DNA of 44,290 nt, counting the filler, from Jimgerdemannia flammicorona (lineage: Eukaryota), in NCBI GenBank assembly GCA_003990765.1. It is 2 parts of 2 records of this genome, joined end to end, with 100 filler letters (N's around TTAATTAATTAA, not from the genome) between each part and the next. Parts side by side here need not be neighbours in the genome. Positions count along the whole stretch, not along the records: positions 22,202 to 44,290 come from RBNJ01001337.1; 1 more part is not named here. The stretch is one strand, 5' to 3'. The translations under genes and the position numbers were made by a program. Under the pieces are notes generated by a model, which was not told the DNA's origin, did not search any database, and was given only the letters and a program-made list of their open reading frames with translations. Below, piece after piece: positions 1-43,125 of this stretch (its first letter is position 1; each line of letters opens with the position of its first letter).

Positions 1-66
1 TTTTATAGTCACTTGGACTCCACCTTTATTATCAGTCTATGAGTAAATATACATCATTCCAACCCA

Positions 67-3000: not shown

Positions 3001-3723
3001 ATCCCCACTTCCCCCAAAGCACCCCTGTCCCAGAAGCCCCCAGTGATCTGACCATGGACACCATTCTACCTCCAATGACTTCCAAACATCTAGTCCCCAG
3101 CAGCAGGCCATCAAAATCCAGTCGATTCTAGTCCCCAGACCCCCTGCCCAGTGTGTATAGACCCTTCTACTCCCCCAGCACTCCCTTCCAGCATCCAATA
3201 GTGCACTTAGTCTTTCTACTTCCTCCCATGCCACCAGTCCTCCACTCCTGCTCTCAGCACCTCATCCTCCATCTGTTCTATCCAACAGTGTATCCCTAAC
3301 CATATTGAAATCTCCCCCAAGCACATCCACCTCAGCCTCCACAAGTAATCCACTCTCCTGTAAGCCTTTCACCCACTCTACTCTCTCACCCCATACCACA
3401 GGGCAGTAGCAGGAGCCAACCATAACTGGCCCCCAGCCTGCTCGAATCCACTCTCCCCAGACCAGTCTCTCTCTCCAGCACTATACATTCTGTATCTCCC
3501 CTCTGCCTTTCCTAACCAAAATCCCAACCTTGCCCTTCCAAATTGCCCCACCTCCCCATTCCTTCATCCATTCTAACCTTTCAGAGTCATCTTCGCACCA
3601 GATATCCTGCAATAGGAAGAGATCGGCCTCCAATCCCTTCATCCAAGTAAAAATGTTCCTACGTCGAGAAGTGCCCCATAACCCATTCACGTTCAAAGAG
3701 AAAATGTTGGTTGTACTGTTCAT
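67..3723 (-). pseudogene. LINE ORF2: APE endonuclease, reverse transcriptase, C-terminal Cys/His region; multiple in-frame stops
   Basis: APE motifs FSLNVNGL, GGDFN, RIDWIL, WSDH; RT motifs KNWRPI.LL, EQRGF, FLDQEKAY, QGDPLSP, AFADD, YLGI; C-terminal CEEC...H...C. Confidence 0.92.
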
Positions 3724-3756
3724 ATTGATGATATATGTGATGTCATCAATCAGCCT

Positions 3757-5780: not shown

Positions 5781-5887
5781 GTTGTTAGTCTCTTTTCCCT
5801 GAAAACAATGTCGAAAGTGCCTCCCAAAGGTTGTGTAACCCGAATGGTACTGAAAAGAGATGTCACGCCTCCCACCTTTGCTATACA

Positions 5888-8800: not shown

Positions 8801-9071
8801 CTAGCTCCACCCCTATGGCCCTTCAGAGAGGTACCCCCATGAGGTTGCTGCCTGGTAGCCCTCACCGGTACCTTCTCCCCTCTCAGCCAGCTCTCCAATC
8901 CAGCTCTCTGTTAACCCCCCTTCACCTTCTCCACAAAGCTCACTCTGCCAGACCCTTGACCTCCAGCTCCGCCCCCTCCTCCTCCACATCCTCCTGCCAG
9001 CAGGCCCCTCTTACTTCCCCCCAAGCCAGAACCTCTCTCCACTTACTGCCATTCAAATGCTCCAGGGCCAC
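5888..9071 (-). mobile_element. LINE copy 2 (same family): 5' part of ORF2 (ATG 7047) and most of ORF1 (stop 7078), interrupted by LINE copy 1 and by the Gypsy element
   Basis: Collinear with copy 1: 5891-6010 matches 2558-2680, and RIDWIL, WSDH and KEVGNLLWICQMMNNLAAEEL are shared. Confidence 0.9.
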
Positions 9072-19862: not shown

Positions 19863-20927
19863 TTGAAAGGACTCTCAGTAGAAGGAGGAGTTATCAATGA
19901 AGATTATACAGGCGAAATCATTATTCTCATTTGAAACCACAGTTGGACACCCTTCAAGATCCCTATAGGTTTCTGCATTGCCCAGATTCTATTCAAAAAA
20001 ATCGAGTCAACCCTGACAGTCAAGGAAGTCCCTGAACTACTGCCTACCATCCGAGGATCCAAAGGATTTGGCTCATTGAACAAGACCCCAGCCCAATCTA
20101 CCATGAGTAGTGCACCCAATGAATCAAATCAAATCGAATTTGGCCCAAACTCGATTCGATTCAATTGAATCAAGGGTCCAATTTGATTCAAAGTTCAATT
20201 TGAACCCTAATTTTCAAAATGTAATAACTCAACGAAAACTCATCTAAATTTAACATATTTTATCTTGTTAGATTCATCATATTAATGTGATTCTAACAAG
20301 CTAAAGTATGTTAGATTTGGATGAGTTTACGCTGAGTTATTGCATTTTGAAAATTAGGGTTCGAATCAGATCCTCAATTCAATTCGACTTTTGATTTGAT
20401 TCAAATTGATTCGAATTGAAAAATCCCCAATTCGATTCAACTCATTTAACCCTCAATTCGATTTGATTCGAATTGATTTGACTCATTTGGGAGCACTAAC
20501 CATGAGCAAAGAAGAACAATTCTACAAGAAGATTGAAGACAGATATGTACCAAGTAGCTGATGTCCTCATGGTATTAGAATGTACTCTTCTCAAATGATT
20601 GATGATTGCTTCTCTTGTGTCAATGAACTAGCTCAAAGAAGAACCAACAGAAGGAAAGGTCCTACAACCAAAATCACCACCATTGGATCAGACAAACTAC
20701 TTATACTTAAAGCTTTTGTCAACCAAGTACCTGTTAAGATTATGATAGACAGTGGTGCTTCAGGCAACTTCATCAATGAAGAGACAGCCAACAGACTCAA
20801 GGTCTTTACCTCTCCAGTACAGCAAACTCAAGCAGTTTCTACAGCTGATGGAACCTCACATGTTATTAGCAAAGAAGTTTGCAATCTACCCTTCTGAATT
20901 GGCAACTATCGAGTATATATTACCCTC
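19861..20927 (+). mobile_element. Fragment of a second copy (B) of the same Gypsy family: dUTPase C-half, Cys/His linker, protease
   Basis: Collinear with 13361-14028 apart from the MITE; contains MIDSGASGNF. Confidence 0.92.
20108..20498. mobile_element. hAT-type MITE, 391 bp, largely palindromic
   Basis: TIRs TAGTGCACCCAATGAATCAAATC / GATTTGACTCATTTGGGAGCACTA; perfect 8-bp TSD ACCATGAG (20100-20107, 20499-20506); the empty site is present in copy A at ~13600. Confidence 0.93.
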
Positions 20928-22101: not shown

Positions 22102-22201
22102 NNNNNNNNNNNNNNNNNNNNNNNNNNNNNNNNNNNNNNNNNNNNTTAATTAATTAANNNNNNNNNNNNNNNNNNNNNNNNNNNNNNNNNNNNNNNNNNN
22201 N
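22102..22201. other. Assembly gap with artificial TTAATTAATTAA spacer
   Basis: 100-nt block of Ns with a central six-frame-stop linker at 22146-22157. Confidence 0.9.
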
Positions 22202-24050
22202 AGAATTCGGCAGGCAAAATTTCGTTTACGATCGACACATGGATATCCCCCAATACAATTTCATTTCTGAGCATTACCAGTCATTGGATTGACCTCGATT
22301 GGCAGCTTAAATCTCTCACCCTTGACTTCGTCAAACTTGCTGGCCCTCATTCTGGAGACAACATCGCAGATGCTTTTATTAGTTGTATCTGGGAGCTTGG
22401 GATCACCACCAAGGTAAAAAAGGGGGGCTTGCCATCAGGTCAGCGTTTTGAGGGAGGTCCTAAACCAAACCAGATTTTATTGGTTACTTATTTTCACATA
22501 AATTTATCAACCAAATATTTCAAGTACAGATTTTGGCCATTACGATGGACAATGCCACAAACAACTCAACATTTTTCCAAGGTTTAGTGGCTAGCCTCAA
22601 ACAGGAAAACGTGGCCTTCAGTACAGAAAGCTGCCGTGTGTGATGCCAGGTCCACGTACTGAACCTCGCTGTTCAGGACTATCTTACGCACATAGACAAA
22701 ACATCCGAGAGAGGAGGTGCCCTGAGTATAATTTCCAAGCTGTACAAACTGGTTGTATCGGTCCGATCATCCCCACAACGACAAGACAAATTCGCTGCAT
22801 AGTGTAGGGCAATCAGTTAAGCCCCGAAAGAGCTTATATTGGATGTCTGTACATATTGAAACTCAACATTTGCAATGATCCAGCACATGCTGGAGTTTGC
22901 TATGGTATGCATCCTTTTTTTCTTTGGTCGGCTGAAGCAACTGTTTCGGATGATGGAAGATTTATTTTTTTAAAAAAAAAAAAAGCCAATAGATTCAACG
23001 ATGGCTACCGACAAGGAAATATGGGCCAAGGCTCTAGGTGAAAGCAAGTGGGACGTACTTAGGAATGTTGTCAGAGTTTTAGAAGTAAGTGGTGGTTGCT
23101 CTGGCTCCACACTCGTTTTGTCTACCTCTGCACAGTGCAACACCTCACCACATATAACTGCCAGTGTTTCGATGATTGTACAAAGGATATAGTCAAACAA
23201 ATGACCCTGACAATAAGCTCTGCGATACCGATATACAACCTTCTGATTGACTGGCTAGAGGACAAGCTCGAGGATAGGCTGGAGGGTTGCGGTGATTTAT
23301 AGTTAAGCCCGAATCAGAGAGATACCATGGTGGTTGCTCTAAGCAAGCTTAGAAAATACTACACCCAAACAGATACCGCCGTATACTCAATCAGTACAGG
23401 TATGTTGGCGTGTGGTCATTGCCCCTTCCAAAATAGAGGAAACCCTACAAAAACTCACTCTCCTTTTCTTCGAACAGTGCTGGACCCACGCTTAAAGCTA
23501 CAATACCATAAAGATCAGAGCTGGGAGCAGCACTTCATTGAGAGAACCAAGCAGGCCATAATTGAAGTGTACTGGAAAAACTACGCACCGCTGCAAGGTT
23601 CTGGCCGAAGTCCGGACGAATATGCTGAGGGATCCCTCCTGTCCCATATTTACTTCAGCAGAAAGAGGAAGAGGGAGCTGTCAGTGGAAGAGCTGCCACC
23701 AATAGATGAACTTACCATTTATCTTGCCAGCGACCACGTGGTTCTGCTGGAGGGTACGGAGGTGCTCAACTGGTGGAAGGTAGGTTGTCTGGTGGGCGTT
23801 GGGCCAATTTAACCCACCAATCTAACCACCGCTCTACTCTATCCACCGGGGTGTGCAGCTACATCAAACAGACTTCCCCAGCCTGTGTGGTATAGCTCAG
23901 GACTACCTGGCGATTCCTGCCTCCAGCGCTCCTGTCGAGCAGATGTTCTCAGGTGGGGTGGACCTCGTTGCCCCAAAGAGGTGTGCACTGAATGCTGAGA
24001 CAATCCGGGCATGTATGTGTCTAAAGTCTTGGTGGGGCTCGGGCTGCTAA
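22202..24050 (+). pseudogene. hAT transposase, intron-containing, 5' part missing, with stops
   Basis: Hand translation: ISFTIDTW, ITSHWID, GPHSGDNIA, ITMDNATNN, RV*CQVHVLNL (CxxH), LDPRLK, and dimerisation domain WWK...FPSL..IAQDYLAIPASSAPVEQMFS. Confidence 0.93.
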
Positions 24051-24159
24051 AATTTGGTGGATCCATGGATAAGTTGGTTGGCCTTGTGGAATATTTAATA
24101 CCTTTCAAATTAATAAAAGGAAAAAAACCTGAGGACTCGGCTCAGAGTTTGCGGCCAAA

Positions 24160-24470
24160 GTGGGGCAGGGTTGGCAGCCCCAAGCTGCCAGTGCCTGGGT
24201 CGGTGGGCAGGTCGGCGGAGGGAGCGCGCAAAATTTGCAGCCCTCCGCCGGCAGCAAGGGGCAGCTCCAAGCCGCAATTGTCTGGGTCAGGGGGGGAGGC
24301 GGAGGGAGTGCACAAAATTTGCGGCTCTCTGCCAGCAGCGAGGGGCAGCCCCAAGCTGTCAGTGCCCAGGTCAGTGGGCAGGTCGGTTGGTGGGCAGGGC
24401 AGGCGGAGGGAGCATGCAAAATTTGCGGCCCTCCGCCAGCGACATAGGGGCAGCCCCAAGCCGCCAAGGA
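24160..24470. repeat. GC-rich array of three hairpin modules with shared spacers
   Basis: GGCGGAGGG-AG...CAAAATTTGC-CCCTCCGCC at 24214-24249, 24298-24333 and 24402-24437, alternating with GGGCAGCCCCAAGC. Confidence 0.8.
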
Positions 24471-24749
24471 GTCCGGGGCAGAGGGTGCTTCTGGTGGGTG
24501 GAGGGTGCTTCTGGCAGTCGGAGGGCATTTCCGGTGGTCGAAGTCGCCAGTTCGGGTCCCACGGGCACCCCGGCCCTATGCTGCAGCACTGCACTGGCAG
24601 CACTACAGAGCAGAGCTGAGGGGCTGGTAGGGCTCTATATAATGGCTAAGCTAGTGCTACATAAGAGGCGCCCAGCCCAACCCCCCCGTATAAGACTGCC
24701 CAACCTGTACAAAATGGCTGCCTAACCCTCACAAAAGATTGCCTAACCC

Positions 24750-26810
24750 TCACAAAAACTGCTCCACCCACCGGTCCCAGGCCTTGATGAGCCTGTCATC
24801 CATTGTGAGTGTAACGACTGTTGTGTCCGAGCTCTCTTCGAAGGCAATGGCACTGTGGTGATCATGTGGTTGGAATAGGATAGCCGTGTTGGCCGCAAAC
24901 AGGACCTCGAAACTGTAGGTGAGGTTGTACCAGACTCTGCCACTGTCCTCCCAGATTGGGCCCTTCCTTTCCGGGACGTAAAACATTACTGGGGTGACAT
25001 TGTTGTCTGTGTGTATGGGCAGAGAAAGGTTGCGCCTGACATATCCTGATGTGATGTGAGCGTACGGTTAGGTGAACCCTTGGCCCAGGACCTCATACTA
25101 CCAGGCTGTGCTGGTGGATACCTGCCCTTGGTCCAGCCCCAGGAGCTCCAGCTTGGAAACCTGCCAAAACGGACGGCAACCGGTCAGTCCTTTTTGCATT
25201 CGGGGGGCAGAAACCCCCCAGGCTGCAGAAACTCCCTGAACTGCAGCACCCCAAAAAAGCGGAGCTCCTCACCTCATATGGTATGCTAAATTGTGCCAAG
25301 AACGTACATACAGCCGTGCTGAGATCACCACCAAGCTGGCCTGCCGTACGCTCTACCAATCTGCTCAAAGAACCCCAGATTATAGCCGCCATCGCCGCAC
25401 AGGCCATGTCATGCTCACATGCAGTTTGCTCTTCAATGGCACTTCTAAAGTTCCAGTAGGGGTACAGAATCTTGTGTATCCCTGGAATTGTATCAAAAAG
25501 AGTATGTCAGCGAAGAGTGTGATTTATCTGGAGAGGAATTAAAAAAAAAGGGAGACAAGTGTAGGGGATTTCGGAACCCACCCTTTGCCAGTGTTGCAGT
25601 ATACCCAATTCCTGTCCAAACCCCCCCTCCTTGCTTTTTTCACCCCCTCTTCCCTGCCACCCGGTATTTGATGCAATCCTCGCAAATCTCGTTGATGTGG
25701 CGGCAAAGCTCATCACTGTAGAGGTTCCTTACCACCATCGCAACCACCTCTCCACATTCATTAATAAAGATATGATTCTCTTCATCGTTAGTTACTCCTG
25801 CTGGCCAATGGACCCCTTGGTCAAGTACAATTGGCTCTGATTCGAATATAGACCCCCAAGCCTTGATGACGATGCTGGTACTGCTCATGCTGAACATCTT
25901 GCCCTCGAATTTCTCTATTTGATCAGATGCCAGACATGGTTGAACTCGGGTAACTTTGAACTCTTCTTTCTACTAGAACTGAGCCCTGATCTGAGGGACC
26001 GAGATAAGTATGCAGATGGGTTGCGTGCGGGCAGGTTGCGTGTGGGCGGGTTGTAGGCAGGTTGCATGCGGGCGGGTTGCATGTGGGCGGGTGGGTTGCA
26101 TGCGGACAGGTTGCGTGCGGGTTGCATATGGGTGTGGGTGTTTTTTAGGGGGAGACCACATAAAAATAAAGTTAAATAAAACATGGAGATGGGTATTTCA
26201 GAAAAAGAGCGTGAGTGAGTGAGCTGCATGCCGATGAGTTGCATGCCGATGAGTTGCACGCTGACAAGTTGCACGAGTTGCATAAGAATTGCTCATGAAG
26301 GCTTACTTCTGTTCCTTTTGAGACCTCCGCCATGCAATGCATTGACTCAACAGCTCAGCCACCAAAGGCATGCCCCACAATGTCCACCAGCCTTTCTTCA
26401 TCTTGACCAGATGTTGTAAATAAAGTCAGCAGATCTCGCCATAGAGCTGTGGACCCTGAGAAAAGCACGAGATGAATTGGGTCATACTGGGAAAGTTTAA
26501 ATAAATAAACACAAGTAAACAAGTGGCAGCCGAGTGAGCAACCTACATCTACTATTGGCTGCTCCAAAAAGGCTGCCGCATACATAGCTGTGAGGTCTGT
26601 GAATTCCGAGGTCCAAAGGGCTGCCATGAGTTGTTGCTGGAATTCTCCCTCATCCCTGCCATCGCCATTGTCATTGCCACCGCCACTGCCACTGCCATCA
26701 CCCCTTTGGCTCTCGATGAGCAGCTTGTGTGCTGTCCATATGAGAAAGAATCTAACATTGTCAGCAGAGAGTGCGTTTCCACCTCGAATACTCCCTCTTT
26801 TGATGATCAT
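24750..26810 (-). pseudogene. Five-exon pseudogene (~490 codons) with a C-terminal candidate 2OG-Fe(II) dioxygenase (TET/JBP-like) domain
   Basis: Phase-consistent GT-AG model: exons 26810-26547, 26486-26307, 25990-25582, 25481-25273, 25160-24750. Motifs GGGVWTGIGY, NLSLPIHTD (HxD), ILFQPHDHH. Six in-frame stops, all explicable by C>T. The gene model is well supported; the family call is tentative. Confidence 0.55.
26015..26285. repeat. Short tandem repeats (GGTTGCRTGYGG and GAGTTGCATGCCGAT units) inside predicted intron 2
   Basis: Visible repeats at ~26015-26135 and ~26215-26283. Confidence 0.75.
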
Positions 26811-27009
26811 TGCAGGTGAAAAATGAGTAGACTGGACCAATGTACGAATTTAGGGCTGCTGTTTTGTTTGCTCGTGATGTGGCAAGAAAGAACAAAGAAA
26901 AAGAACAAAGAAAAGAGAGAGAACAAAGGAAAGGGTGATGTCACCAAAGTGCAGCAGAAAAAAAAAACAAGAGCAAAATGAATAAAAGAAAGAGTGATGT
27001 CACCAAAGA

Positions 27010-27233
27010 TTTCAATCTGAATGGATCAATCCAGATGGGTCAATCCGGATGGATCATCTGGATGGATCATCCGGATGGATCAATCCGGATGGATTAATCC
27101 AGATGGATCAATCCGGATCAATCCGGATCAATCCAGATCAGATCATGAGACCAATCCGAGTTGATTCGAATCCATCACATGACGAATCTGAATTGAATCT
27201 CATCCGGATCAACTCCATTCATTCGGAGCACTA
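27010..27233. repeat. hAT subterminal repeats (ATCCGGAT/GGATCA) and right TIR
   Basis: Dense ATCCGGAT/ATCCAGAT motifs ending in GGAGCACTA. Confidence 0.8.
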
Positions 27234-29219
27234 TATATATCTATAAAATACTAGTAGTTTTATATCTATCTTGTCTAGATATCTTGATTCAATTTATATA
27301 ATTGTTCAAATAGTAGCAGTTGTTTATTATTCAGCTTAAAAGTGAGAGATTTATCTTGAATCACTAGCCAATAGACACTAAGTTGTAATATAGTAGATAT
27401 ATAACTATATAAGTGTGTTGAATTTTTATATCTTAAAAACTTAATCTTCTTTGACTCTATAGAGTTCTTGGGATATAAGAGTGAGTAAGTTCAAAGTATA
27501 TCTGTCTGCAGACTTACTAGTTTCTTTACTTTCTCTTTGCTTTGAACTATTTTGATCTAAGGTTTATTCACTCTAAATACTGATGATATTTATATAAGTT
27601 TATTAGCTATAAGGTAGCTAAGTTATAACTATGTTTTCTGTAAATTACTTTCTACAAATATAGATTCTCTATATCTATAAAATATCTATATTTGTAAAGT
27701 TTCTACATTTGTAAAATATGACTACTATTTGTAAGACTATACTATATTTGGGAATTAGATTCAGATACTATAATCAAATATCTATTCTCCTAATTTATAT
27801 TTCTAATTTAGATCAATTATCATAGTATGTAAAGAAGACTTTTTTAACTGAGCTAAACTAACTCTACTGAGCTTTATTCACTCTAAAATACTGGGTTATT
27901 TATACAAATTTGTATACTAATTCTGCTACTAAATATATAGCTAAGTATCAAGTCTTTTTATGTGAAATTTCTAGCAGAATTCCATCTGTATCTCAGATAA
28001 AATCTCATGTGAAATCCTATCTGAAATTTATAAAAGTAATAAGAGTTTTACTGATAATGTTTTAGATATAGTATCTATAGTAAAAGTAATTTCTACATTA
28101 TAATAAATCAGGAAATCAGATTCAGATATCATAATTAAATATCTATTCTCTTGATTCTTATTTCTATTTCATACTATGTATTAAATATATAGTTATTCTA
28201 TATAAGATATATTACTACTAAGTTATAATTTTTATTAGTAATTCTATTGTAAATTCTACTGATAATTTTAGTAAAAATTTTATTGAAACTTCTAATAACT
28301 TATTACTATATAATAAATTATTATATCCTTCTCTTTTTTAATAAAATCTATTTATTTAATTTTATATCAAACTTCAGATATTTATTAAATTGAAATATAA
28401 TATATTAGATAACTTAAAAAATAATATTACTCTAATATTTATTAGTTAAATTAGTAATATTTTTAGAGAATACTTCTTGAAGATAGTTAAGAACTTATAA
28501 TTAAATATATATAGTCTTTTTGTAATAATATAAGTATAGTTATCTATATAATATTTAAGAGGATATTTATACTTATCTTGTCAAAAATATAACTATTTTT
28601 GGAAAATTTTATTAGAATTTCTAATATATAGTATATTTATATATATAATCAAGTTGCTACTTTTTTTATATTTAATAGAATATTTTCTTCTTTTTTTTAG
28701 ATAGTATTATACTTTGAGTAATCTTTCTATTTTATAAGATAGTACTGAGTAAACTTGGTAGTTTATCTAAACATTAGTCTTTATATAATAAATTATTATA
28801 TATCTATAAGCTATTGAAAATTCTAATAGAATTTCCAACAAAAATTTCTATAAAAATTTCTATAGAAATTCTAACTAATAGTTATAAATATTGAATATAG
28901 TATAATTATATATAGATATATCTAATATACTATATTTAATTATAGCTTTAAATTTGTTTAAATACTCTCTATATTGAGTGTATTATAATCTTAGCTTCAC
29001 TTTTCTCAAATATAAAAATAAAGTAGTATTCTTATTATAAAACCCTCAGACCTGACTTATTAATAATTCTGAGTCTAATTAACTTAAGATATAAGTTTAC
29101 CAGTATAAGAATCTGAAAGTGATATTTAGACTATACTACTATAATAAATAATTAGAACTCAGTACTTTCTTATTAAAACTTAGAACTTAGAGCTAATAGT
29201 TATTTTTATTATCTATAAC

Positions 29220-29500
29220 TAGTGCTCTCAATAAATCAAAGATCTAATTTAATTCAAAATTTAATTTCAACTTTATTTTATTTTTTATTTTATTTTATTT
29301 TATTTTTTGAAATATAATAATTTAATAAAAATATATCTCAATTTAATGATCTTTAGCTTGTTAAATTCCCCTATATTAGAGAAATCTAATAAGCTAAATA
29401 TTGTTAAATTTAGATATATTTTTATCAAGTTATTATATTTTAAAAAATAGAATTTAAATTAGACTCTCAATTTAATTTAAATTTGATTTAATTTAAATAA
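29220..29500. mobile_element. Decayed relative of the hAT MITE
   Basis: Starts TAGTGCTCTCAATAAATCAAA and has the same central palindrome layout (AAATATAATAA...CTTGTTA...CTAATAAGCTAAA...GTTATTATATTTT). Right end not clear. Confidence 0.65.
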
Positions 29501-31304
29501 CCCAAGAAATAGCTCTTGTCAAAATTAACAGCCTCAATAATATCTATATAGCCCAAGTAGAGTTAGATCTTATAAATAACTTTATACTTGATCTTATAAG
29601 AACAAGATATTTAACTCTATCATTAATCTCTTCTAAGAATCAATTGCATAAGTCTCTATCTCTATCAGTATCTGGCCATCTGGCTACTCTGTTCTCTCCA
29701 ATATCAGACTAGTCTCTGACTGGTCTTCTATATCATCTGAGACTATAAGGTTAGAAACTAGCTCAAAAGAGCTAATCTGTTTCTTATCTCAGATGAAGAG
29801 TCTCTAACCCCTTATACAGAAGTCCATTACTATTATATAATATAATAAAACACTATACTATAAGTCTCAGTCGAAATCTAGAATAATTACTTCATAGTTA
29901 GTATATGAAAATAATATTATTAAATAGTATCATTATAACTTTATAATGACACTATTATAGTATAACTTTTATATTATTTATAGCAACTTTTTATTTTCTA
30001 TTTTTTAGCTAAAAGTTAGTCAATATTAAGAGACCTTCAAAATATATAAATACCTTTAGAGAAATGACTCAAGAACTTTCAGAATTTATAGAATATTGAA
30101 TAAAAGAATAATTAAGACTTAAGTCTATAATATATAAATAAGTCTCAGAATAATCTTCAATAGAAAGACTATATCTAAAATTAGATATTCTGAACTCTAT
30201 AAATACTTGAACTCTGAAGAATCTAAATATAATTCTCAGAACTAGACTATATCTAAAAAGAATATACTAAAAGACTTAAACTTTGAAGAACTAAAGTTTA
30301 TAATTATTAAATTATTATCTAAATCTATTAGAAGAAGACTAGATCAATTAGAAGTATAATAGACAGTACTTAGGCACTAAGATAGCCACTTTCTCAAGCT
30401 ACAGATATTTGATATAAGTATCTTTAAATTATTAAAATCAAGAATTATTAACTTAAAGAGTATAATTACTATAATAGTAAAGATATATTATTATAATTAG
30501 TAGCAGTAGAATCTATAAGCCAATCTGATATAAAACAAATAAAGAATTATTAAATAGTCTATAAGCTATTACTAAACATATACTCTAAAAAGTGACTAAG
30601 ATACTCTGGACTCTTAAATAAGAGAAAAATAGAATATAAGAACTATTGTTAACTGAGAAAGCTAATATAAAGAATAATAATAAGAACTTATTGAATATTC
30701 TGCTCAATATTTATATTCAGAATTCTGTAAACTATGTTTAGTATTAAGAAGAAATACAGATCTTCAAAAAAAGTTTTATAGACTTATATGACAATATATA
30801 TATAGAGTAGAAATACCTGAATCAGTTACTTAAGCAACAGAATAATTTCTTGAATTAATCTCTATTGAAATAAGAACTACTATTCTTTAGTAGATTAATT
30901 TCCCTTACTATTACTCTACTGAAAGAAAGAGCTATCTTTACTTCAGATATTTAAGTTATAAGACCAACTATATATAAGAATTATAAAGACTAGAAACTTC
31001 TGAGACAACTATTTAAAAAATTCTATAAAAAGAACAATCTATTTTGATACCCAATAAGAATCAGACATCTCTTCTGTACTTAGTTCAGAAAGAGACCAAA
31101 TAGAATATTTATCTACTAGATAACAGATACTAATAGGAAGACAACTTCTAGAATTAACAAGCCTAGAACCTAGTGTAAATTTACTATATAGAAGCTAGAG
31201 AATTACTTAAGACCCTTATCTCAGAACTTTATATATCTTCACACTTAGTATCTATTTCTCACTCAAGACTAGAACTTGAACCAAAAGATAGATATTTAGA
31301 TTTT

Positions 31305-32468
31305 ATATATCTTTCTTTGCTATCTTATCAGTTATAATAGTTTGGTAGATAATTTTTTAAGTCTATTTTTCACAACTAATATCTCCTCTATCTTAAATTA
31401 GTTTACTATATCTATTACAAAATAGTGAAAGAGAGGCAATAGTAATGAGTTGTCCCTTTATTGATATCAGATTGATATCTTCTCTACTTTTTTATAGTTT
31501 TTAGTATCTTTAGCTATATCTGGAGTATACTTATTTTAATATAATGCCTTCTTTCTTTTGTTATTATCAATAAGGTATCATCTTAGTATATTATAGATTA
31601 TATAGAGAGTCAGCTAATCTTAGACATCAGATACTTAGTATAGATTATCTGTAGATCCTCAGTATTTATGGTGGGATCCTTTGACTTTCGTGAGCTTCTC
31701 AGTGAGCATAGTTCTGATATAGATAATTGTTTTTTTTGAGTAATATCAAAATGAAAGAGGAGATAACTATCACAGATAAGAGAAAGAGTAATAATGATAG
31801 ATCAGTAGAGTATCAGACTAGGGGTAGTTATTAAGGCTGAGACAGATACTACTTTGGTGGGGTTTTTTGATTGATGTAGAGTAGTTAGATAGTAAGTATC
31901 ACTCTCAGCTACTTTTGATAATTCATAAGATTGGGCCCTAGTTATTAGAGATAGTTGAGCTATCTAGATCAGATATCTTGGCTACACTCAACTAGAACTG
32001 AGAGCTGATATAACAATATGATTAAGGCCTGCAGACTTGAGTAGTAGGATATTAGTGGTCTTCTTCTATCTTATATATAAGTCTTCTACTTATATATCTC
32101 ACTTGGAAGAACTAGGCCCTATCTACTATCTGTACTTTGAGGAGAGTTTTTTCTTTATCTATTATTTCTACTTAGGACGGCAGAAGTTATTCTATTTAGC
32201 TCAAGTATGGCCTTATATATACATTGAAGTTTCAGATATATGCTTTCAGTCATTGATATATAGTTGAGTTCTCTCTAATAGTAGAAAGAGCATAATATAC
32301 AAAATGAGATATAGGTTATATTAGACTCTACTATATCTAGTATAGTCAAGTTACTAGATAATAACTAGTCTAAATTCAATAAGAGAGCAGTGCTTGATGG
32401 ATGGTGAGAGAGAGTTTTGGTCTATATAGTCTAGGTTCTCTTCTAATAAAAATCTGTGGAACTTTGAG

Positions 32469-32509
<41 letters not shown>
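31305..32509 (+). mobile_element. Poly(A)-tailed element, copy 2, heavily C>T/G>A mutated
   Basis: Aligns to 20928-22101; 36-nt poly(A); ~14-bp TSD GATATTTAGATTTT (31291-31304) / GACATTTAGATTCT (32510-32523). Confidence 0.82.
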
Positions 32510-32511
<2 letters not shown>

Positions 32512-34091
32512 CATTTAGATTCTGAATCTAAACTATCAGTAGAAGATCTTTCTGAAATAAAAAGACTACCAGATATATTATCTAAAGAGAAGGAGAAAGC
32601 AATAGATTCTTTAGAAGAAAAAGATCTTAAAAGACTTTTTAAAGAAAGCTCTGAAGACTTAGATAAAACTTTTAAAGAACTAGAGTTTATGCCTAACCCA
32701 AGTTATTATTATTATTAGTTATTATTGAAAATTATTTTTACTAAATTATATTAAAGATATTATTATATAGTATTAATGTTAAAATATAGATATTAATATA
32801 GATATTATTTTCTTTTAATTATATATTTTAAGAGATAACTATATATTACTTATAAGAATTCTATAGTTTACTATATATATATTATTTTATTATATTAGCT
32901 TACTATAAGTAGTACTTTTAATAAATTGATTTAATTTATTTAAGAGTACTAACTATGAGTAGAGGTTTCAATCCTTGCATTGAGATCTTACTCTTCTCCT
33001 TTTGAAATAGAATGATATCAGATAGATATATTTAATATTGTTTACATTCAGACATAGTGCTGCTGCCCCCAGGGCTATCAACTACAAGATGAAACCCAGC
33101 AATCTCACCATCAATATAACCAATGGCTGGCCTTACCTGCTACCAGCTACCTGTAGTCTGGGAAGGTTAGGTTGGCGTGTACTGTTTGGAACGTTGCTGT
33201 GGCAGTTGGTCTCACAATAAAAATGCACCCCAGGAGTGATTGGTGAATGTACGAATCTGAATCTGGTAAACTGACATTTATGAGTTATAGTTATTATCTA
33301 TATGTATAAGATTTGCTTCTCTTCTGCGCATTTCGTAACATAGATTTTTAAAACGAAGAGGTTTGCAGATACCATTGTTAAGCAGGTCACATACACATAC
33401 GAGTTGGGTCGTCACCTATCAAATATGGATCGCAACAACTCTCTAATGATTTATCGCCCAACGACAGGATCCGCACATACAATTCCCACACACCCCCGAG
33501 TTCCCATAATCAACTCCCGATCTGTGACTGACGACGCATCATAGCAACTGAAGCCATTTAAATTGCTTTTTATTTGAAGACTGTCAGTGTGCCTTTGACT
33601 TGTGCAAAGCTAATTATGCATCGTTCAAAATCTGATCTTTCTATTAGTTATAGATGGATATGAATTTGATTATTCAATGTCCACGTCACAAATAACAAAG
33701 AAAGGTAAGCTCTATATCAGCGTAGCATCATGCATGTAATAAGCTACGCTTGTTGGATCAATCCGCCTGCGAAGAATGCAGATCGGGAGCAGCCGTGTGG
33801 GCTTTGAGTGACATTTCCATTCTATCGGAGATGTCGCAACCCAGATTGGGTGGCTGCACCCGGATTGGGTGGCTGCACATCACCGTCAAGGAGCAGTCCC
33901 ATCTCGTCGAAAAATTTTGATGTCCTATTCGAAACTCAGATCGCTTCATTGTTCCATTCCCCTTTCTTCTCCACGCCGTCCACACTGAACCGGCTCTCTA
34001 AGGTACCTATCTTCCGACTTCGTGCTTGCACCACATCCTTGTCCTCGTACATTAAACCTCCCAGGTCTTGTCCGTCATAGGAACAAAAATC

Positions 34092-37000
34092 ATGCCGGTA
34101 GCTGAGAAAGACAACGCCGTCGCCACCGCGGCGAAAAAGACGACCGTGGCCGACGCGACCAAGGAAGAGGAGGAGCAGCAAGTCGCGACCACGGATGGAG
34201 AGGAACAAGCCGCGCAACTTGCGGAGGGCATAGGTAGGTATCTCAAACGTCAAGTGACAAGAGTGAACTATTTTATACGTCGCGTTGTTTTGAGCGCACG
34301 TCGTGGGATTGTGTGACGAGTTACCCGTATGGATTGTTGGTGAGAATTTGTAGCGCTATGGTTGTTTGGAATACGATGGAAAAGTGGGCTGTGATATGGT
34401 GTCACATTTCGATGTGCCTTTGGGGTTCCGATCTGATGATGGCGAGATGCTTTTACCGTTCTAACATGCTTTTTGCAAATGCGCTCCCCTTGTCCATTTA
34501 TTCCCTCATTCTGAAGTCGCCGACGAGTCCTACCAGCTCACCATCATCCTTCCCCGCGAACCCGGCAGGGTCCAAGTCATAGTATGTGCACACTCATTAC
34601 ATAACTTTGCCTCATCTATTCCGATACACAGATTCTAATTTGCTTGTTTTGTACCATCACAGGCGAGTCCCCGAGAGGCTATCCACGACATCAAGCAGTC
34701 CATTATCGAATCTCCCGAAACGTGCATTTACTCGTGCTTCTATCTGTCCTACAAGGGAGTCCGCCTGAATGATTTCATGGATCTGGGTGAGATCGAAGGG
34801 GTGACCCCCCAGAGTGAGTTCGAGCTTATTGAAGGTAAGCCCGGGGGTAATTGAGAGATTTTTTGTTTCAATGTCGGCATTGCATAATGAATTATACTAC
34901 AGAGGTTTTTCATCGCACATTTCATGATTCATCCAATTGTTGATCCGATGGACCAAACGGCCTCCTTCTAATCAATTGTTCATTCTTTCTGTGCAACCAG
35001 ACGTCTACACGGAGCGCGATGCTCGCATCCACATCAATCGCCTCCGCGACCTCATGGCGGGCCCGCACAAGCAGAGCCCCAACGCCATCGGTATCGATGC
35101 CGGCCTGTCTTTCTTGACGGCAGTGACAGGAACCGTAGGTGAGTGAACGCCATCCACGGTTTGGCATAGTTTTCTGACTAAATGAATGCGCTTCATGCCA
35201 TCGATTCTCCATTACGTTTTCTCACCTCTCCACATTTTCGCTCACACCCCCGTACTCTGTCTTGATCCGCATCAGTGGAGGAAACGATCGAATCGCCCAA
35301 GGACGGTGAGAAAGCTCCCGAGACGGCGTTCACGGGGTACGATCTCAAGGCACCCGCGGCGCTTTCAAAGTTCGTCCCAGTGTCGTTTGAGCGTCATCCG
35401 CCGCAATGCCTCAAGAGTCTGGCTCTGTCGGGATGGAACTCGCCACCGCATTATTTGAGATTGAGAGGTATGTAGAACAGGCATAGAAAAGAATGGTTTG
35501 GATAAAGGTTATGGCGAAATATAGCAACAAACAATTTGACGGACAACTTCTAACGCGTTTGTTTCACACAAAAAGGCGAACTTCTCTACCTCGTTGTGAC
35601 GACGCTTGAGAATGAGACCGTGCACATAACCTCCGCCACCACGGGCTTCTTCGTCAATCGGTCGACAAACAACCAGTTCGACCCGGCACCCAAGCCCTCG
35701 ACGACGGACAAGCCTCTCCGGGCACACTCGCTCATCACGCTTCTGCAAAGCGTCTCGGCGCAGTTCGCTACGCAGTTCACGCTCCTTCAGAAGTTCATTA
35801 CGGACCACCAGATGCTCGAGGTTCTCCCCGTCAATACTTACCCGCCTGCACACCCATGGGCCGTGACGCGCACACCCCACACCTACGATCCGACCCGCCC
35901 AGCCGACAGTTACCTCAACTTCGGCACCGACACCGTCGACTCACTGCACGACTGGAACGACGAGCTGCAATCGCACCGCGAGCTACCCAGAGGGGACTTA
36001 CAGGAACGAGTCCTCCGCGAGCGCCTCATCAACAAGATCCAGGCTGATTTCGCCGATGCGGCCGTCCGAGGTGCCATACAGGTCGTTGCTGGTGCTGTCG
36101 TTCCACTTAACCCGACCGACCCGCCGGAGTCGTACATGTACCTGTACAACAACATCTTTTTCTCAAAGGGATCGGATGGTCGCGGCACGTTCGAGGCTTT
36201 AGGTGGGGACGAAGCGGCCCATGTGGCTACGGGGAAGGATCTTGAGGGCGTCAAGACGCTGAATGGCGCCGATATCGAGGGGTTATATACGCTGGGGAGC
36301 GTCATTGTGGATTATAAGGGCGTAAGAGTCGTGGCGCAGAGTATTGTTCCCGGTACGGTTCCTTCTTTTATACCGTGTTTATGGGATTGGCTGTTTCATT
36401 TTGGAACGGAAGCAATTAAGAATACATGAGCGCGAAAAGCAATCATCATATACAAGGTCAGACCGGGGATGCCTTTAATAAAGCAAATCAAGCGAATATT
36501 TTCTCACTATACTTGCACCCCAAATTTTAGGCATCTTCCGCCGCCAGGACGAGAACTCGATTATCTACGGCTCCGTCGACAACGGCACGGTCATCAGCGC
36601 GGACCCCAAATTCCACGAGCTAGTGGGGCAGGCGGCCAAGTCGCTACACCTCGCCGAACACAGTGTCTTCGACGCCGAGGGTAAGAAGGTGAATCTGTAT
36701 ACGTCGGTCGAGACTAAGGGCCTGCTCGGTGCCGACGGCCGCCGCTATCTGCTCGACTTGTACCGTCTGCACCCTGTCGACGTCGAATTCCAGGAGGCCG
36801 AGTGCGTGGCCACGGAAGGCGAAGGCGAAGGTAAGGGTGCGACGCCGGCCTACCCGCACAAGATGACGTTACTCAGACCCGAGCTCATGGACCTATTCTG
36901 GGATAGCAAATTCCGCGCATGGGTAAAGGAGAAAGCGACCGCGTTGGCGGAGAAGAAGGCAAAGGCGACGGAAGCGGAGAAGAAGGAGGGAGAGACGAAG

Positions 37001-39621
37001 GTGGTGGAGAATGGCACGGCGAATGAGGAGAAGAAGGAGGGAGAGGAGAAGCCTGCGCAGCTTTCGACTGAGGAGCAGGTTGCGGCTGAGGATGCGGCAT
37101 CGCTTGATTTCGACTTGACGTTCAATCCGGACGCATTTATCGGCGTTAAGGCTGTTGAGGAGGAGGACTTGGAGAAGTTGCACCAGCAGGAGGGAGTGGT
37201 CCGTGAGGCTTCCAAGTTCTTGAGGGAAACCATTATTCCGGCGTTGGTGAGCATGCAGATTTCATTGTGGCTCTGAATTATCCCCTTACCCTGACTTTTC
37301 TAATACTCGTTCATTTCCTCATCAAACCTTTGCAGATAATCGATTTCACCTCATATATCGTCTCTCCCCTGGACGGTGAGGCTTTAACCAAGATCATGCA
37401 CCGCCGTGGCATCAACATGCGCTACCTCGGCAGGGTTGCCTCTCTGGTCGCCTCTACCGAAGATAAGCGATTGGCCCATATCAAGGTGTGCATTAATAAA
37501 TATCGTGTGCGATATGTAATATGTCGAGCCCTTTGTGATTTCAACAACTCATCGGGGCCTCAATATATGCGATGGCACATCTTTTCTTTACCACTTTGGT
37601 GTATTAGGATTTGGCCGTCCAAGAAATGATTATCCGAGCCAGCAAGCGTATTCTCCGCGGTCTCTTGAACACGGCAGCCATTACCCAGGTGGCCGAGTGC
37701 ACCTCACACTTCCTGAACTGCCTCCTTGGCACCGCATACAACCCAGCACCCGAGGGTGTCGTGTCCGAACCCCTCAAGGCGCCCGCCTACGCCAGCCTGA
37801 CGCCTGCTTCCCTCGCCGACCAAATCCGTTTCGAGGTCCTGCGGCGATTCCGGTACGCTCTGCCAGACTGCTACATCGGCTCGATCAAGAAGCTGCCGAT
37901 GTTGCGCGAGATCTGCCTGCGCGTTGGGTTGCAGGTTGAGGCACGTGATTATCAGTTCGTCCCTAGTGCCGTAGAGGAGGAGGAGGAAACTGCGGTCGAG
38001 GAGCCGAAGGAGGGCGGTAAGAGTAAGAAGGACAAGAAGAAGGGTCAGGCGGTTAAGCAGAAGAAGATCAAGCGGATCACCACGTTTGTGCCGGAGGACG
38101 TGATGAATTTGTTGCCAACCGTCAAGCAAGCTACGACGAGGGTGAGCATTTTAAGCATTTGCCTTCCACTGATATGTAATCTCACAGGCAACTCATCTCG
38201 ATTACCGCTTTCAGAGTCTCTTTGCCGAGGAAGCTTTCGAGGCTGGCAAAATGAGCCTTGCCCAGGGGCAACGCCAACTCGGCCTCGAACTGCTGCTGGA
38301 ATCGTTGGCATTGCATGAGCAAACCTATGGATTCCTCCACCCGGAGACTGCAAAGTGCTACGCCGCCCTGGCCATGATTTACTACCACGGCGAAGACGGC
38401 GAGGCGGCGCTCGATTTCCAGCGGAGAGCTGTCATCGCGTCGGAAAGGACGTCTGGCGTGGATAATCCGGATACGATCCATAACTACGTATGTTGGGTTT
38501 TATTATTGCCGCATCATTGTTTTTCTAATAAATCCGTACATTGTTGCGTGAGGCTGATGTTGCATGTTATGGCTCACTGTTTTTCTTTTGCACACAGTTG
38601 AATCTGGGCTTGTTTGAGCACGCCGCTGGTAGGACCCAATTGGCTCTTCGCTTTCTCCGTCATGCGATGAACTATTGGGATCTTGTTTTCGGGCCCGGTC
38701 ATCCCGATGCTGCGACGGCTGATGTAACTAATTTTTATAATTTTGTCATTTGTTATAAGTTCATCGGTGCCATTAATACTAATTTACCTGCCTTGTACTT
38801 TATTTGTTTGTTTATTCAAAGAACAACGTTGCTGTCATGCTTCAGATCCTTCGCGACTACGATCTCAGCTGCAAGTTCTTTGAGCGCGCTTGTGAAACGC
38901 AAGAGAGCATCCTCGGCAAAGAGCACGTCGTCACCGCCACGAGGTAAGCGACAATTTTGTTGTTAACGACAAACTTACGCTTATTGAACAGGATAGGTTT
39001 CTAACACAACGTACAATATTTGCATATACGCATCCGTGAAGTTATCATATTCTGGCGAAGGCGTTCTCGCTAACAGGCGATTTCAAAAAGGCCTTGGCAG
39101 TGGAGAAGATCGCATATCGCGTTTTCGACGAGAAGGTATGCCGTCATTCACCCTTGTTCCTTATTTTCGTGAATATCACAACCTTACCAATTTCCCTATA
39201 CAATATCGCAGCTCGGTCGAGATGACATCAGGACGAGGGAAAGCGAGTCGTGGCTGAAAGAGTTGACTCAAAATGCTGTATATACTGTACGTCGTTTTCT
39301 CACATGTTGTCGATTTCAATTCCTCATGTTTATTATATGTCACGTTTCGTCGCACAATGTAGTGCCCCATCACGCCATATCCTTGACTCATGTTTACATT
39401 TTTGGTTGGCACAGGCCAAACTGGCATTAGAGCACCAGAAGCAGGGCAAGGTGAACGCGCGCGTCTCAACACCGAAGTCGCAGGCGCTGGAAACCGACCC
39501 CACGGGATCCAAGGGTCATCTGCCGATCGACGAGCTAATGAAGTACATTGGTAGCTCTGACGCTAGTGGGTCGGGGGGGTCGAGGAAAGGAAAGAAGAGG
39601 CAGCAACCCAGAAGGAAGTAA
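34092..39621 (+). CDS. CLU1: Clustered mitochondria protein CLU1/TIF31 (CLU domain + TPR repeats), multi-exon
   Basis: ATG at 34092, TAA at 39619-39621. Motifs SLALSGWNSPP, DWNDELQSHRELP, FFSKGSD, VIVDYKGVRVVAQSIVPG, KGLLGADGRRYLLDLYR, MHRRGINMRYLG, LREICLRVGLQ, and TPR region (HEQTYGFLHPETA). Canonical introns. Confidence 0.93.
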
Positions 39622-40367: not shown

Positions 40368-43125
40368 CTATTTAACCTGAAGCGGAGAAGCATCGGCGAA
40401 ACTGCCGGCAACAGGGGCTGCGAATGAATGGACAGATGTTGGGTGAGTGAAATGATCAATGTGATTGTATCACGGCAAGAGAGAGATCAAACACATGTAC
40501 TTACCAGAGCACTTGCTGGCCTTGACCCATTTTCCACCAGAGCAGGTGTACGGTTGAACCAGGGCATTGTTCTTGGCACACTTGGGGTAGAGGCTGAAGT
40601 TCTCAACGGCGACAGGCAAGCTGATGCCGTCAATGGTGGCGGCCGGGCAAAGGTGGGTGGCCTCGAAGGATAAGAACTCGGAAAGGTCTAAAATCGTGAC
40701 GAAAAGAGTATGGTGGTTGGCATGGGAATGGATGGCATGGGGAAATGATGAATGATAAAAATGCTTACTCGGTTGGCCGGTCGCGATGGGGTTGTGATTG
40801 GCGGCACCGGCCAAGTCTTGGTTCTAAAGTAGAAATATTGTTAATGTGCATCATAGAGCAAGGTGGAAAACGACAAGTAGTGGCATGGACAAAAAACGTA
40901 CAATAGACCAATGTACCACCCCGAGCAGACCATTCTGGGCCGCGAACTGGGTTTTCAGAAGCAGACTGAGGCGGTCATCGTAACCAACCCAGTTGGTGGC
41001 GCCCTTTGAGTCAACGTATGTGCCATAGTACGAGTATCCCTGGGTTTTACAATGTGCACTGGTGTTGAGTATGTACAAAAGCAATTGGTTTGCAGACGTG
41101 GCGATCATGTCAACGGGTTTGCAGACTTACCTCTGGGGTGAAGACCGGGGTAAGTTTCTTGGAAGCAATGAGATTGGCAATCTCATAGTAAAAGAGGACA
41201 CCGGAGGATTGGCTGCAATTTCCGGCGGTACCTATGATTTCCGATCCGTTGAAAAGATGGTCAAAGAAAGAGTCAACCTATCGCATTCTCTTCACTAATC
41301 GACGACCCTAATTACAGCTCGAACTTACCTGAGGCGTTCCATGCCGAACCAACATCATTGGTCTCAGAGGGATTCGTGAGCGTGTATGTGTGGCCGTATA
41401 AAGGTAGGCCTGCGATTCGAGAAGATTCGGGGGATATCTGTTAGCAATCAAGTCATATCACTACTCTTTGAATTGAAACCCCACTGAATTGACGTATTAC
41501 CAAGGTTGATCTGCGAGCGGTTCACACCCTGTTTTTCGTAGAACTCAATGCTAGAGTAATCGTTGAAGGCTGAGGAGACGAAGGCAGGGTATTTGAACGT
41601 GTTATTATTTTGCCAATACGTCCAGCATACGAAAGTTTATATGCATAAAACAAAGAGCATTACTCGGATTAGCACCCCCAGAAAGAGGCAAGAGAGGGGA
41701 GTTAACTTCGACGACACCATTCGTGCCATATGGACCGAAGAAATCTTTGTGAGCAACAGTAACAAAGCAAAAATAATATTGTATATTAGAAGTCACATAA
41801 ACTATCAAAAAAGATTGAGAAAGAGAGGAATGTTTGTCTTACATACCGTAAGCTGCATGCGAGGTTTGCAATGTGTTAACCAATTTTCCCAGATTAATGA
41901 TAACCTTTTTTGTATCAAACGAGCGCTTATCTCAAGAGCCGTTACTTACCCATAATATTGAAAAAGTCAACTGTAGTGCGGATTGATATTGATTATTAAC
42001 AGCTGAATTAGGGGGCTACGACACCTCTTGAAATCGATACGCACCATATTTGGCAATGCCGCCAAGATCGTAACCATTAAGATTATCACCTATCGCTGGA
42101 GAGGCCAGCGAGATGATGAAATTGGCAGGAGCAGCTGCACGCAAATCGGCAAACAGGTGGACAGCGTTGACCTTGTCGGCAGCCACGGGCTAAATATAAT
42201 CAAACTTAGAACACAAATATATCTCGCAAGCGATAACAGAGAGAAGGGGTAGGTGATAGTGCAGACTTACGTATTCCCAACTCTATGTAGGCCACGAAGG
42301 CATGCAACAAGAAACCCGTCGATGAGTCGTGATCTCGCGCAATCAATGCAAGATTAGGTTAACAATACTTACAATGTCGAGGCCATCGAAGCCATAGGTC
42401 TGGGCGAATTGGATGGCGGATTTGACAAAAGTCGCACGGGCGGCTGCGCATGCCGCCATCGTGGGGAAGTATGCGTTGGTTGGAGGGGTTTGGGAGAATG
42501 TATACCCGCCAATGGAGAGGAGCTAAAAGGAATAGGGGAAGTCGTCTCTTGAGATCAGTAGATAAATTTTCGAATAATTAGCTAAAATCTTTATTCGATT
42601 GGGTTCCTACCGTCTTGGTCTTGCCCTTTTTGCCATTGATTTCCTTGAAGAAGGTGACATCGTCCCACTCAACGGGCTCAACTTCGTAGGTGCTGTTGAT
42701 CTTGACGAAGGCGTAAAAAATGTAGTCGTAGTTCTCATAGGTGATGTTGATAGGCTTGAAAGGGGAGCATGGGTTGTACTGCGCCCTAGAAAACGAACAT
42801 AGAAAAGTCTCTTTGTCAATTACAATGCTCGATTAGCTTTGAGCGAAGAGTTATTGTACGGACCAGTTCGTGAAGTAGCCTAAGCGCTTTAATGGTGGCG
42901 GATTGGTATGGTGGGCAGGCGCTGACAGACCTGTGTATGTATTCCATTCCAAATATCAGTAGAGCACTTACTTCATTCATGCCCATAAAATATAGAGTCC
43001 CGGATAAAAAATAAAAAGAAATTGAATGGGGATGACACTTAATCATTGTTGTTCGTACCTTCGGCGATCAGGCACGACAGGAGTGCCGCGCCAACTAAGA
43101 GCTTATGGAACATTTTAGTCGACAT
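40368..43125 (-). CDS. GH18 chitinase-family protein, secreted, many small exons, short Cys-containing C-terminal extension
   Basis: Signal-like N-terminus MSTKMFHKLLVGAALLSCLIAE; motifs FFYAF, LLSIGG, FDGLDI/SWEY/P, GLPLYG, WVGYDD, GLLGVVHWSI. The end coordinate depends on the choice of last exon. Confidence 0.87.

Follow-up and report, generated by a model that had tools for sequence, protein, structure and literature searches.

The window analysed here is a stretch of 44,290 nucleotides from the Jimgerdemannia flammicorona assembly (GCA_003990765.1), composed of eukaryotic, fungus-like DNA rich in transposable elements (TEs), and its positions 22202-27233 hold the remains of a DNA transposon of the hAT superfamily together with a gene for a dioxygenase-like protein. 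The gene is encoded on the minus strand, between the stop codon of the transposase and a genuine hAT-family terminus (Table 1). It is a real gene, and this copy is dead: five in-frame stops interrupt it, and the transposase beside it is fragmented. It is probable, although far from certain, that 22202-27233 represents a left-cut, inactivated copy of a hAT-superfamily element that carries the dioxygenase-like gene beside its transposase in the opposite orientation, and for the enzyme of an intact copy we propose a role that depends on Fe(II) and acts on 5-methylcytosine (5mC).

The transposase ends in a domain that matches the hAT dimerisation model of Pfam with an E value of 1.2e-12, and its pieces contain stretches legible by eye that we take to be typical of hAT transposases, i.e., FTIDTWIS, DNATNN, HVLNLAV, and LDPRLKL. 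No other Pfam model, including any for the RNase-H-like DDE catalytic domain of hAT transposases, and no PDB chain was matched by sequence in the open reading frame (ORF) pieces upstream of 23826. At 27233 the element terminates in TAGTGCTCC, which reads TAGTGCTCCGAATGA on the minus strand and is followed on the outside by the plus-strand flank TATATATC. The same terminus family occurs on the neighbouring contig in a miniature inverted-repeat transposable element (MITE), which has TAGTGCACCCAATGA at one end and the reverse complement TAGTGCTCCCAAATGA at the other and is bordered on both sides by a perfect 8-bp target-site duplication (TSD), ACCATGAG; the first 30 nucleotides of its left end and of the 27233 end are identical at 20 positions. 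Because the MITE has a perfect 8-bp TSD, the terminus family is a genuine hAT family that has transposed in this genome. The MITE also contains an internal palindrome of 117 nucleotides, and its insertion site is the gag/protease region of a Gypsy-like element.

The gene model, which was guided by homologues, runs from 26849 to 24753 in five exons that total 1467 nucleotides or 489 codons, with all joints in frame and a terminal TGA at 24752-24750. An earlier note on this DNA, made from the sequence by itself, had recognized the hAT transposase end and the terminus at 27233, which are borne out by the dimerisation-domain match and the terminus sequence, and had described a five-exon gene of ~490 codons on the minus strand, with which the present model agrees; the peptide strings that it quoted were all found on that strand. 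Its details needed revision in several respects. The decay stops are present, but they number five rather than six; a further TGA, near 25509, falls inside intron 3. The four introns do join in frame, but three of them are GT-AG, while the second now reads ATGAGC...TAG. Three of the five exons are bounded differently, and exon 2 is supported in another frame, in which ELLSQCIAW matches the N-termini of the homologues L001 and P0006 described below. Exon 5 starts ~110 nucleotides further upstream than had been assumed, because two homologous proteins, P0003 and P0006, align across the presumed intron. The two stops in exon 5, TAG at 25100 and TAA at 25070, can be regarded as C>T-type changes because P0003 has Gln at both positions. 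No RNA run was listed among the public sequencing runs matched to the stretch, where the best word share was 0.20.

Table 1. Positions of the elements, gene parts, and neighbouring features in the window. TIR, terminal inverted repeat; LINE, long interspersed nuclear element; LTR, long terminal repeat.
Feature	Position	Strand	Remarks
hAT transposase pseudogene	22202..24053	+	5'-truncated by the junction; spread over three frames; several stops
hAT dimerisation domain, C-terminal, then stop codon	23826..24050	+	PF05699 Dimer_Tnp_hAT; 47.9 bits (cut-off 21.4)
GC-rich tandem repeat, 84-87-bp unit	24170..24470	.	between transposase and dioxygenase-like gene
TIR-like 15-mers, back to back	24591-24605; 24652-24666	-; +	11/15 match to the family TIR each; 46 bp apart
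Exon 1	26849-26547	-	first ATG at 26810; weakly similar to the L001 upstream exon, z = 2.5 (5/200 shuffles reach the score)
Intron 1	26546-26456	-	GTAGGT..CAG; phase 0 after an Asp codon, as in L001
Exon 2	26455-26297	-	TGA 26428-26426; TAA 26305-26303; weakly similar to the L001/P0006 N-termini, z = 3.5 (3/200 shuffles)
Intron 2	26296-25970	-	now ATGAGC...TAG; 15-nt minisatellite inside (26012-26280)
Exon 3	25969-25582	-	GEVVAMVVRN, GGGVWTGIGYT; in-frame TGA 25642-25640; z = 23 vs L001
Intron 3	25581-25482	-	GT..AG; phase 1 within a Gly codon; position and phase as in L001
Exon 4	25481-25273	-	z = 10.6 vs L001
Intron 4	25272-25161	-	GTGAGG..CAG; phase 0; position and phase as in L001
Exon 5	25160-24753	-	in-frame TAG 25100-25098 and TAA 25070-25068; z = 27 vs L001 exon 5
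hAT-family terminus and subterminal short repeats (GGATCAATCCGGAT-like)	26998..27233	-	TAGTGC-type end
MITE, 391 bp	20108-20498 (20100..20506 with TSDs)	+	neighbouring contig; TAGTGC termini; same terminus family
Filler junction	22102..22201	.	44 N, TTAATTAATTAA (stop in all six frames), 44 N
LINE-like element	~1-9000		RVT_1 and Exo_endo_phos on the minus strand
Gypsy-type LTR element	~9-21 kb		RVT_1, RNase H, aspartyl protease
CLU1/TIF31-like host gene	35554-38963	+	CLU, eIF3_p135, and TPR domains; CpG content normal
GH18 chitinase fragment	40854-41126	-	CpG content normal

A full HMMER scan of 1.84 billion representative proteins with exon 5 (E ≤ 1e-3) yielded seven proteins, of which P0003 (77% identity), P0004 (52%), P0006 (374 amino acids, full length), and P0007 are relatives, while P0005 (a 2115-amino-acid tandem-repeat protein), P0008, and P0009 (internally repetitive) were dropped as unrelated after reading. 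P0010 was recovered as the sole find of a word-index protein search with P0006; when exon 5 or exon 3 served as the query, such a search found nothing. All these relatives are derived from metagenomes and bear either no name or that of “hypothetical protein.” When P0006, P0010, P0003, P0004, and P0007 were compared with the whole window by tblastn, collinear matches appeared at 25804-24756 only, with three collinear high-scoring pairs for P0006 (8e-15, 8e-15, and 2e-7) and one pair each for P0003 (76% identity, 1e-65) and P0004 (4e-35). A metagenome scan with a three-row alignment provided two contigs, L001 and L002. The former holds an intact gene of five exons and 482 codons with 0 stops, in which introns 1, 3, and 4 occupy the same positions and phases as in the window. 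This contig has 34% GC, against ~50% in the window, and a CpG observed/expected ratio of 1.21. L002 is 99.3% identical to L001 and has broken ORFs; 19 of the 20 differences are transitions, 15 of them G>A or C>T in L002. Both an intact and a C>T-decayed copy of the relative therefore exist in that AT-rich organism. P0006 is an unbroken ORF on a Logan contig of 1702 nucleotides that spans the intron positions of the window and of L001, and it may represent either a spliced transcript that was assembled, in which case the gene would be expressed somewhere, or an intronless copy. In a tblastn search of phages P0006 gave only noise (E ≥ 7), and a scan of viral contigs found no relative. The family is small, unnamed, and fungal, and the collections searched yielded it solely from metagenome-derived material, as proteins and contigs (ENA, JGI, and Logan).

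These homologues bear on whether there is a gene at all. The five in-frame stops, the failure to match Pfam, and the weak similarity of exons 1 and 2 to L001 would be expected if chance frames in repeat DNA had been joined and the HxD...H motif in them were coincidental, but neither the tblastn matches of P0003 and P0004, nor an intact, orthologue-like gene in L001 with three intron positions and phases in common, nor the continuous ORF of P0006 across those exon junctions would then be met. The idea is refuted by the HMMER relatives of exon 5, the tblastn matches, and the exon comparison with L001, and its probability is practically nil.

Exon 5 encodes a putative metal-binding site, with HxD at 25013-25005 and, 52 residues after the first His, a distal His (24857-24855) that is invariant in the family, as is an Arg at 24968-24966, which follows the first His by 15 residues. 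Six of the seven aligned sequences (the window, P0003, P0004, P0006, P0010, and L001) retain both HxD and the distal His-Gly. The spacing between the first and the distal His is 52 in the window, P0003, P0004, and P0006 and 50 in P0010, L001, and P0007. The HxD...H triad pointed out in the earlier note is thus a property of the family. The exception, P0007, which represents a cluster of 28 members, has HxN where the otherwise near-identical exon of L001 (1534-1956) has HxD; judging from the sequences, a widespread copy would here have lost a metal ligand through a G>A-type change. The ESM Atlas placed P0006 closest to a cluster from Basidiomycota, with a score of 0.96 and 209 of 256 features, and 15% of the members of this cluster contain PF20515, which we take to be a fungal “Tet-like 2OG-Fe(II) oxygenase” model (2OG, 2-oxoglutarate). 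The cluster at rank 11 (score 0.91) contains Tet_JBP in 16% of its members. A literature search on PF20515 / 2OG-FeII_Oxy_6 found no paper. Exon 5 alone was placed in 2OG-FeII_Oxy_3 clusters (0.93, 168 features).

Two sets of observations weigh against the reading proposed at the outset, and the first of them concerns the integrity of the element. A short TIR with an 8-bp TSD is complete in the MITE, but the element itself shows the right terminus at 27233 alone, and no TIR pair or TSD can be demonstrated for this copy, whose left end is missing at the contig junction. Because the junction at 22102-22201 cuts there, the left terminus and the 5' part of the element are absent from the data, and because it is an artificial joint of contigs, the DNA on its two sides is possibly not adjacent in the genome. 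Furthermore, the back-to-back TIR-like pair at 24591-24666 stands between the transposase and the gene, and this pair either arose by chance or marks the place where two elements abut. On the 3.7-kb contig L001, it is the 3' end of the gene, not the 5' end, that faces terminus-like sequence, and no transposase is seen. The sequence in question, at 3490-3630 of L001 and 1.7 kb downstream of the gene, consists of GATTTGATT-type short repeats ending in ...GACTCGTTGGAAGCTCA, and it is similar to the hAT MITE of the window in both its subterminal repeats and its terminus; it may be either the end of the carrier or a separate MITE.

Contigs from four public runs, three labelled as soil metagenome and one as a coded organism, were placed on the stretch. 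In one of the soil metagenomes (run X1), 1967 contigs lie on 22202-27400 and cover 30 of 30 bins, the summed contig depth falls from 203 at 27074-27247 to 28 at 27248-27400, and the differences comprise 536 transitions and 23 transversions. The coverage, the drop in depth, and the transitions are consistent with one repeated unit, although contig depth is no copy number, and among the pieces listed (32 of 2231) none bridges 24197-24744, which again counts against a single element. Among the same listed pieces no bridging piece was found for the 27233 terminus either. The copy number of the 84-87-bp repeat differs among the metagenome contigs, with joints between 24174 and 24406.

One possibility is that two hAT-family elements lie side by side, an autonomous hAT ending at 24605 and a 2.6-kb non-autonomous element at 24652-27233 that contains the gene only and is mobilised in trans, in which case the gene would still be a hAT cargo, though not of this transposase copy. 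The only two extra terminal-9-mer sites (≤ 1 mismatch) in 22202-27300 are indeed arranged back to back as a right end and then a left end, two X1 contigs have a loose end at 24633, within the 46-bp spacer, and L001, which lacks a transposase over its 3.7 kb, has the gene near terminus-like sequence. However, there is no 8-bp duplication for 24652-27233 (GGCTAAGC vs TATATATC), the candidate ends are devoid of short subterminal repeats such as those of the MITE and the 27233 end, their likeness to the family stops after 11 nucleotides, and, by our own estimate, chance alone should produce about one 11/15 match to each TIR variant per 10 kb of sites. A chance palindrome at 24591-24666 is plausible because the local sequence repeats AGTGCTGC-like words. 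We therefore consider the presence of two elements unlikely. The end at 24605 was also tried as the sole true hAT end and was not adopted, the similarity stopping after 11 nucleotides; it is kept as a rival. Judging from the arrangement, the gene would lie inside hAT-family termini whether one element or two are present.

The second set concerns the identity of the protein. No Pfam family, including Tet_JBP (PF12851) and 2OG-FeII_Oxy_6, was matched by hmmscan at E ≤ 10 beyond noise (E ≥ 0.06) in any of 11 family sequences and exon translations, which comprised P0006, P0003, P0004, P0007, P0010, three L001 exons, and window exons including read-through. No PDB chain was found by sequence or profile at E ≤ 10, where exon 5 gave WD40 and reductase noise. 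Two AlphaFold2 models built from shallow alignments had mean predicted local distance difference test (pLDDT) values of 38.1 and 38.6 and are unusable, and the rows obtained with these models from Foldseek against the PDB and from a wider fold search are meaningless. By-eye placement finds no Arg 10-25 residues after the distal His in seven of seven sequences, and there is a GY-T block where PU-type enzymes have GW-R, so that neither canonical 2OG-binding Arg can be placed by eye. In addition, the type that the protein resembles, PE in the catalogue of Kojima (December 2025; PMC12730594), has HxE as its hallmark, whereas the family here has HxD in six of seven sequences, and the likeness to PE is by eye only. 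The earlier note had already remarked on the absence of the Arg that would be expected beyond the distal His, and this holds throughout the family; because all members lack it, its lack is a family trait and not a result of decay. The TET/JBP identity suggested in that note retains the ESM features, the triad, and the by-eye collinearity with PE on its side, but no HMMER match to Pfam or PDB was found, and the Tet_JBP and 2OG-FeII profiles by which it had proposed to verify the identity gave no match at E ≤ 10.

It might be argued from these results that the gene product is a protein of the 2OG/Fe(II)-oxygenase superfamily, or merely a cupin-like one, that is no relative of TET/JBP and does not act on DNA, such as a hydroxylase captured from the host, or a protein with a domesticated or structural role in which no more than the HxD...H pattern is kept. 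The resemblance of exon 5 alone to 2OG-FeII_Oxy_3 clusters, which are of the prolyl-hydroxylase type, would fit this explanation, as would the missing Tet_JBP and PF20515 matches, the presence of PF20515 in only 15% of the best ESM cluster, the absence of the canonical Arg residues, and models whose pLDDT of 38 leaves the fold without support. On the other hand, the by-eye collinearity with the PE type extends beyond the metal triad to the N-terminal strand-helix and the G-Y-(S/T) block, two unrelated genomes (those of the window and L001) have the gene within a DNA transposon or next to one, both gene copies are in DNA with C>T decay, and the high ESM score was obtained with the whole protein, with 209 shared features. 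We regard the non-TET explanation as quite improbable. TET/JBP kinship of the gene product is only indirectly supported, and a double-stranded β-helix fold, as well as the substrate and co-substrate, is inferred. In JmjC/FIH enzymes a strand-IV Lys serves in 2OG binding, and by analogy the invariant Arg that follows the first His by 15 residues may take the place of the canonical C-terminal 2OG Arg in this family.

The proposed role of the enzyme is connected with the way in which TEs decay in this genome. The CpG observed/expected ratio is 0.18 in the LINE, 0.31 in the LTR element, 0.54 in the transposase, and 0.50 in the dioxygenase-like gene, against 0.97-1.12 in three host-gene segments, while GpC is ~1 in all segments. 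Because CpG is low and GpC is not, the loss in TEs appears CpG-specific, which is the mark of CpG methylation and deamination, and a methylation-driven regime is a plausible background of the C>T-decayed TEs noticed earlier. Classical repeat-induced point mutation (RIP) was rejected as the cause of TE decay, with (CpA+TpG)/(ApC+GpT) at 1.2-2.1 in the TE segments, which is not RIP-like. The only RIP-like segment is an AT block at 27234-33300 (GC 0.24, down to 0.16; CpG observed/expected 0.07; TpA/ApT 1.19; (CpA+TpG)/(ApC+GpT) 0.82), and the stretch seems to have been subject to two different C>T regimes. The LINE-like element is also very strongly skewed in GC, with values from -0.34 to -0.51 along its 9 kb.

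The enzyme of an intact copy might bind Fe(II) through His-x-Asp...His and oxidise or otherwise modify 5mC on the DNA of the element itself, and such modification would work against the CpG methylation by which the TEs of this genome are silenced and mutated. Transposon-borne TET/JBP genes have been proposed to counter methylation-based silencing (PMC12730594), and an enzyme that removes 5mC would be of advantage to the element. According to a 2026 review (PMC13297926), the functional characterisation of transposon-encoded TET/JBP dioxygenases is an open question and none has been characterised. The locus adds a family missed by standard profiles, along with intact relatives (L001 and P0006) suited to expression and assay, and their co-substrate chemistry is worth testing because the usual 2OG-binding arginines are absent family-wide. 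Because the present copy is dead, it has no function in the host today.

The locus can be compared with several systems in which TET/JBP genes travel with DNA transposons. AG-type/CcTET-like enzymes are recognisable by Pfam Tet_JBP-type profiles, whereas the family here is not. Iyer et al. reportedly found, in 2014, TET/JBP genes with KDZ (Kyakuja/Dileera/Zisupton) and Plavaka transposons in Basidiomycota. These and the present locus are alike in that lineage-specific TET/JBP genes travel with DNA transposases, but the transposase superfamily is another. The KDZ- and Plavaka-associated genes of Basidiomycota are summarised in the introduction of the catalogue by Kojima, in which TET/JBP genes are recorded for eleven DNA-transposon lineages, among them 20 TET+ hAT7 families across six Puccinia species of rust fungi (PMC12730594). 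The remark in the earlier note that hAT was not known to it as an established carrier is therefore outdated, and what seemed surprising about the carrier has already been published. Like the present locus, Puccinia hAT7 is a fungal hAT DNA transposon with a TET/JBP-type gene beside the transposase, and the role proposed for it, escape from methylation-based silencing, is similar. However, hAT7 generates a 7-bp TSD, whereas that of the family here is 8 bp, as taken from the MITE, and its consensus ends begin with CAACGGTGGG or CAGCGATGGG rather than TAGTGC. The hAT7 cargo is of the PU type (GGKMWGIGWRK..., ...RLGLSLQ), which keeps both Arg residues and by eye is not close to the gene here, and in three families, hAT7-1_PCor, hAT7-2_PCor, and hAT7-1_PHor, the TET gene is located upstream of the transposase and shares its orientation, while in the present locus it is downstream and convergent (PMC12730594).

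The closest counterpart of the cargo is the PE type, whose models match the structures of CMD1, NgTET, and CcTET (section 3.2.3 of PMC12730594) and which is weakly visible by HHpred, with an E value of 1.4 to CMD1. Over the full length of the domain, at least five blocks can be matched by eye in the same order: ..EVVAMVVRN.. in the gene here corresponds to ..EIVGLVARN.. in PE, GIGYTA to MGYSAG, and GLSLTT.ERL to GLSFVTSSRL, and GG.F(F/Y)..YG....N...(I/V)(W/F).....HG(T/S) is a block in common. Both have G-(Y/H)-S/T where PU has G-W-R, an Arg that follows the first metal His by 15-16 residues, and no Arg before the G-L-S-(F/L) strand; the PE sequences printed likewise have no Arg where one would be expected beyond the distal His. 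Both are also borne by DNA transposons and missed by ordinary profile searches. In the accessible material, however, hAT is not among the PE carriers listed, and none of the words AGYT, GIGY, THVD, and HTDNN of the family here occurs in Table S1 (PMC12730594). The enzyme CMD1 of Chlamydomonas, which Kojima names as the top HHpred match for the PE type (PMC12730594), offers another comparison, because it is a TET homologue with HxD...H whose co-substrate pocket departs from the 2OG-binding Arg pairs of TET2 (Arg1261 and Arg1896) and NgTET1 (Arg224 and Arg289) (PMC7854593). CMD1 nevertheless keeps both Arg residues (Arg244 and Arg410) in the alignment and is a host gene (PMC7854593), and nothing in the present family points to ascorbate use or to the formation of 5-glycerylmethylcytosine (5gmC).

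Beyond the article of Kojima (PMC12730594) and the 2026 review citing it (PMC13297926), the literature search found no report bearing on such a hAT cargo. It is conceivable, though rather doubtful, that the family constitutes a fourth, undescribed type of transposon-borne TET/JBP-like enzyme, PE-like but with HxD and without both canonical 2OG arginines, which was spread by hATs with 8-bp TSDs in at least two very different soil fungi. By analogy, an enzyme of such a type would bind 2OG in a JmjC/FIH-like manner through the invariant Arg or would use another co-substrate as CMD1 does, and its product might be a DNA modification other than 5-hydroxymethylcytosine. In the available part of the catalogue (PMC12730594), a hAT carrier with an 8-bp TSD and TAGTGC ends, a PE-like cargo with HxD, and a convergent, downstream placement of the cargo are all absent, and to that catalogue, in which hAT7 and the PE type are the closest counterparts of carrier and cargo, respectively, the present locus adds a new carrier-cargo pair, a hAT with an 8-bp TSD and a PE-like HxD enzyme.

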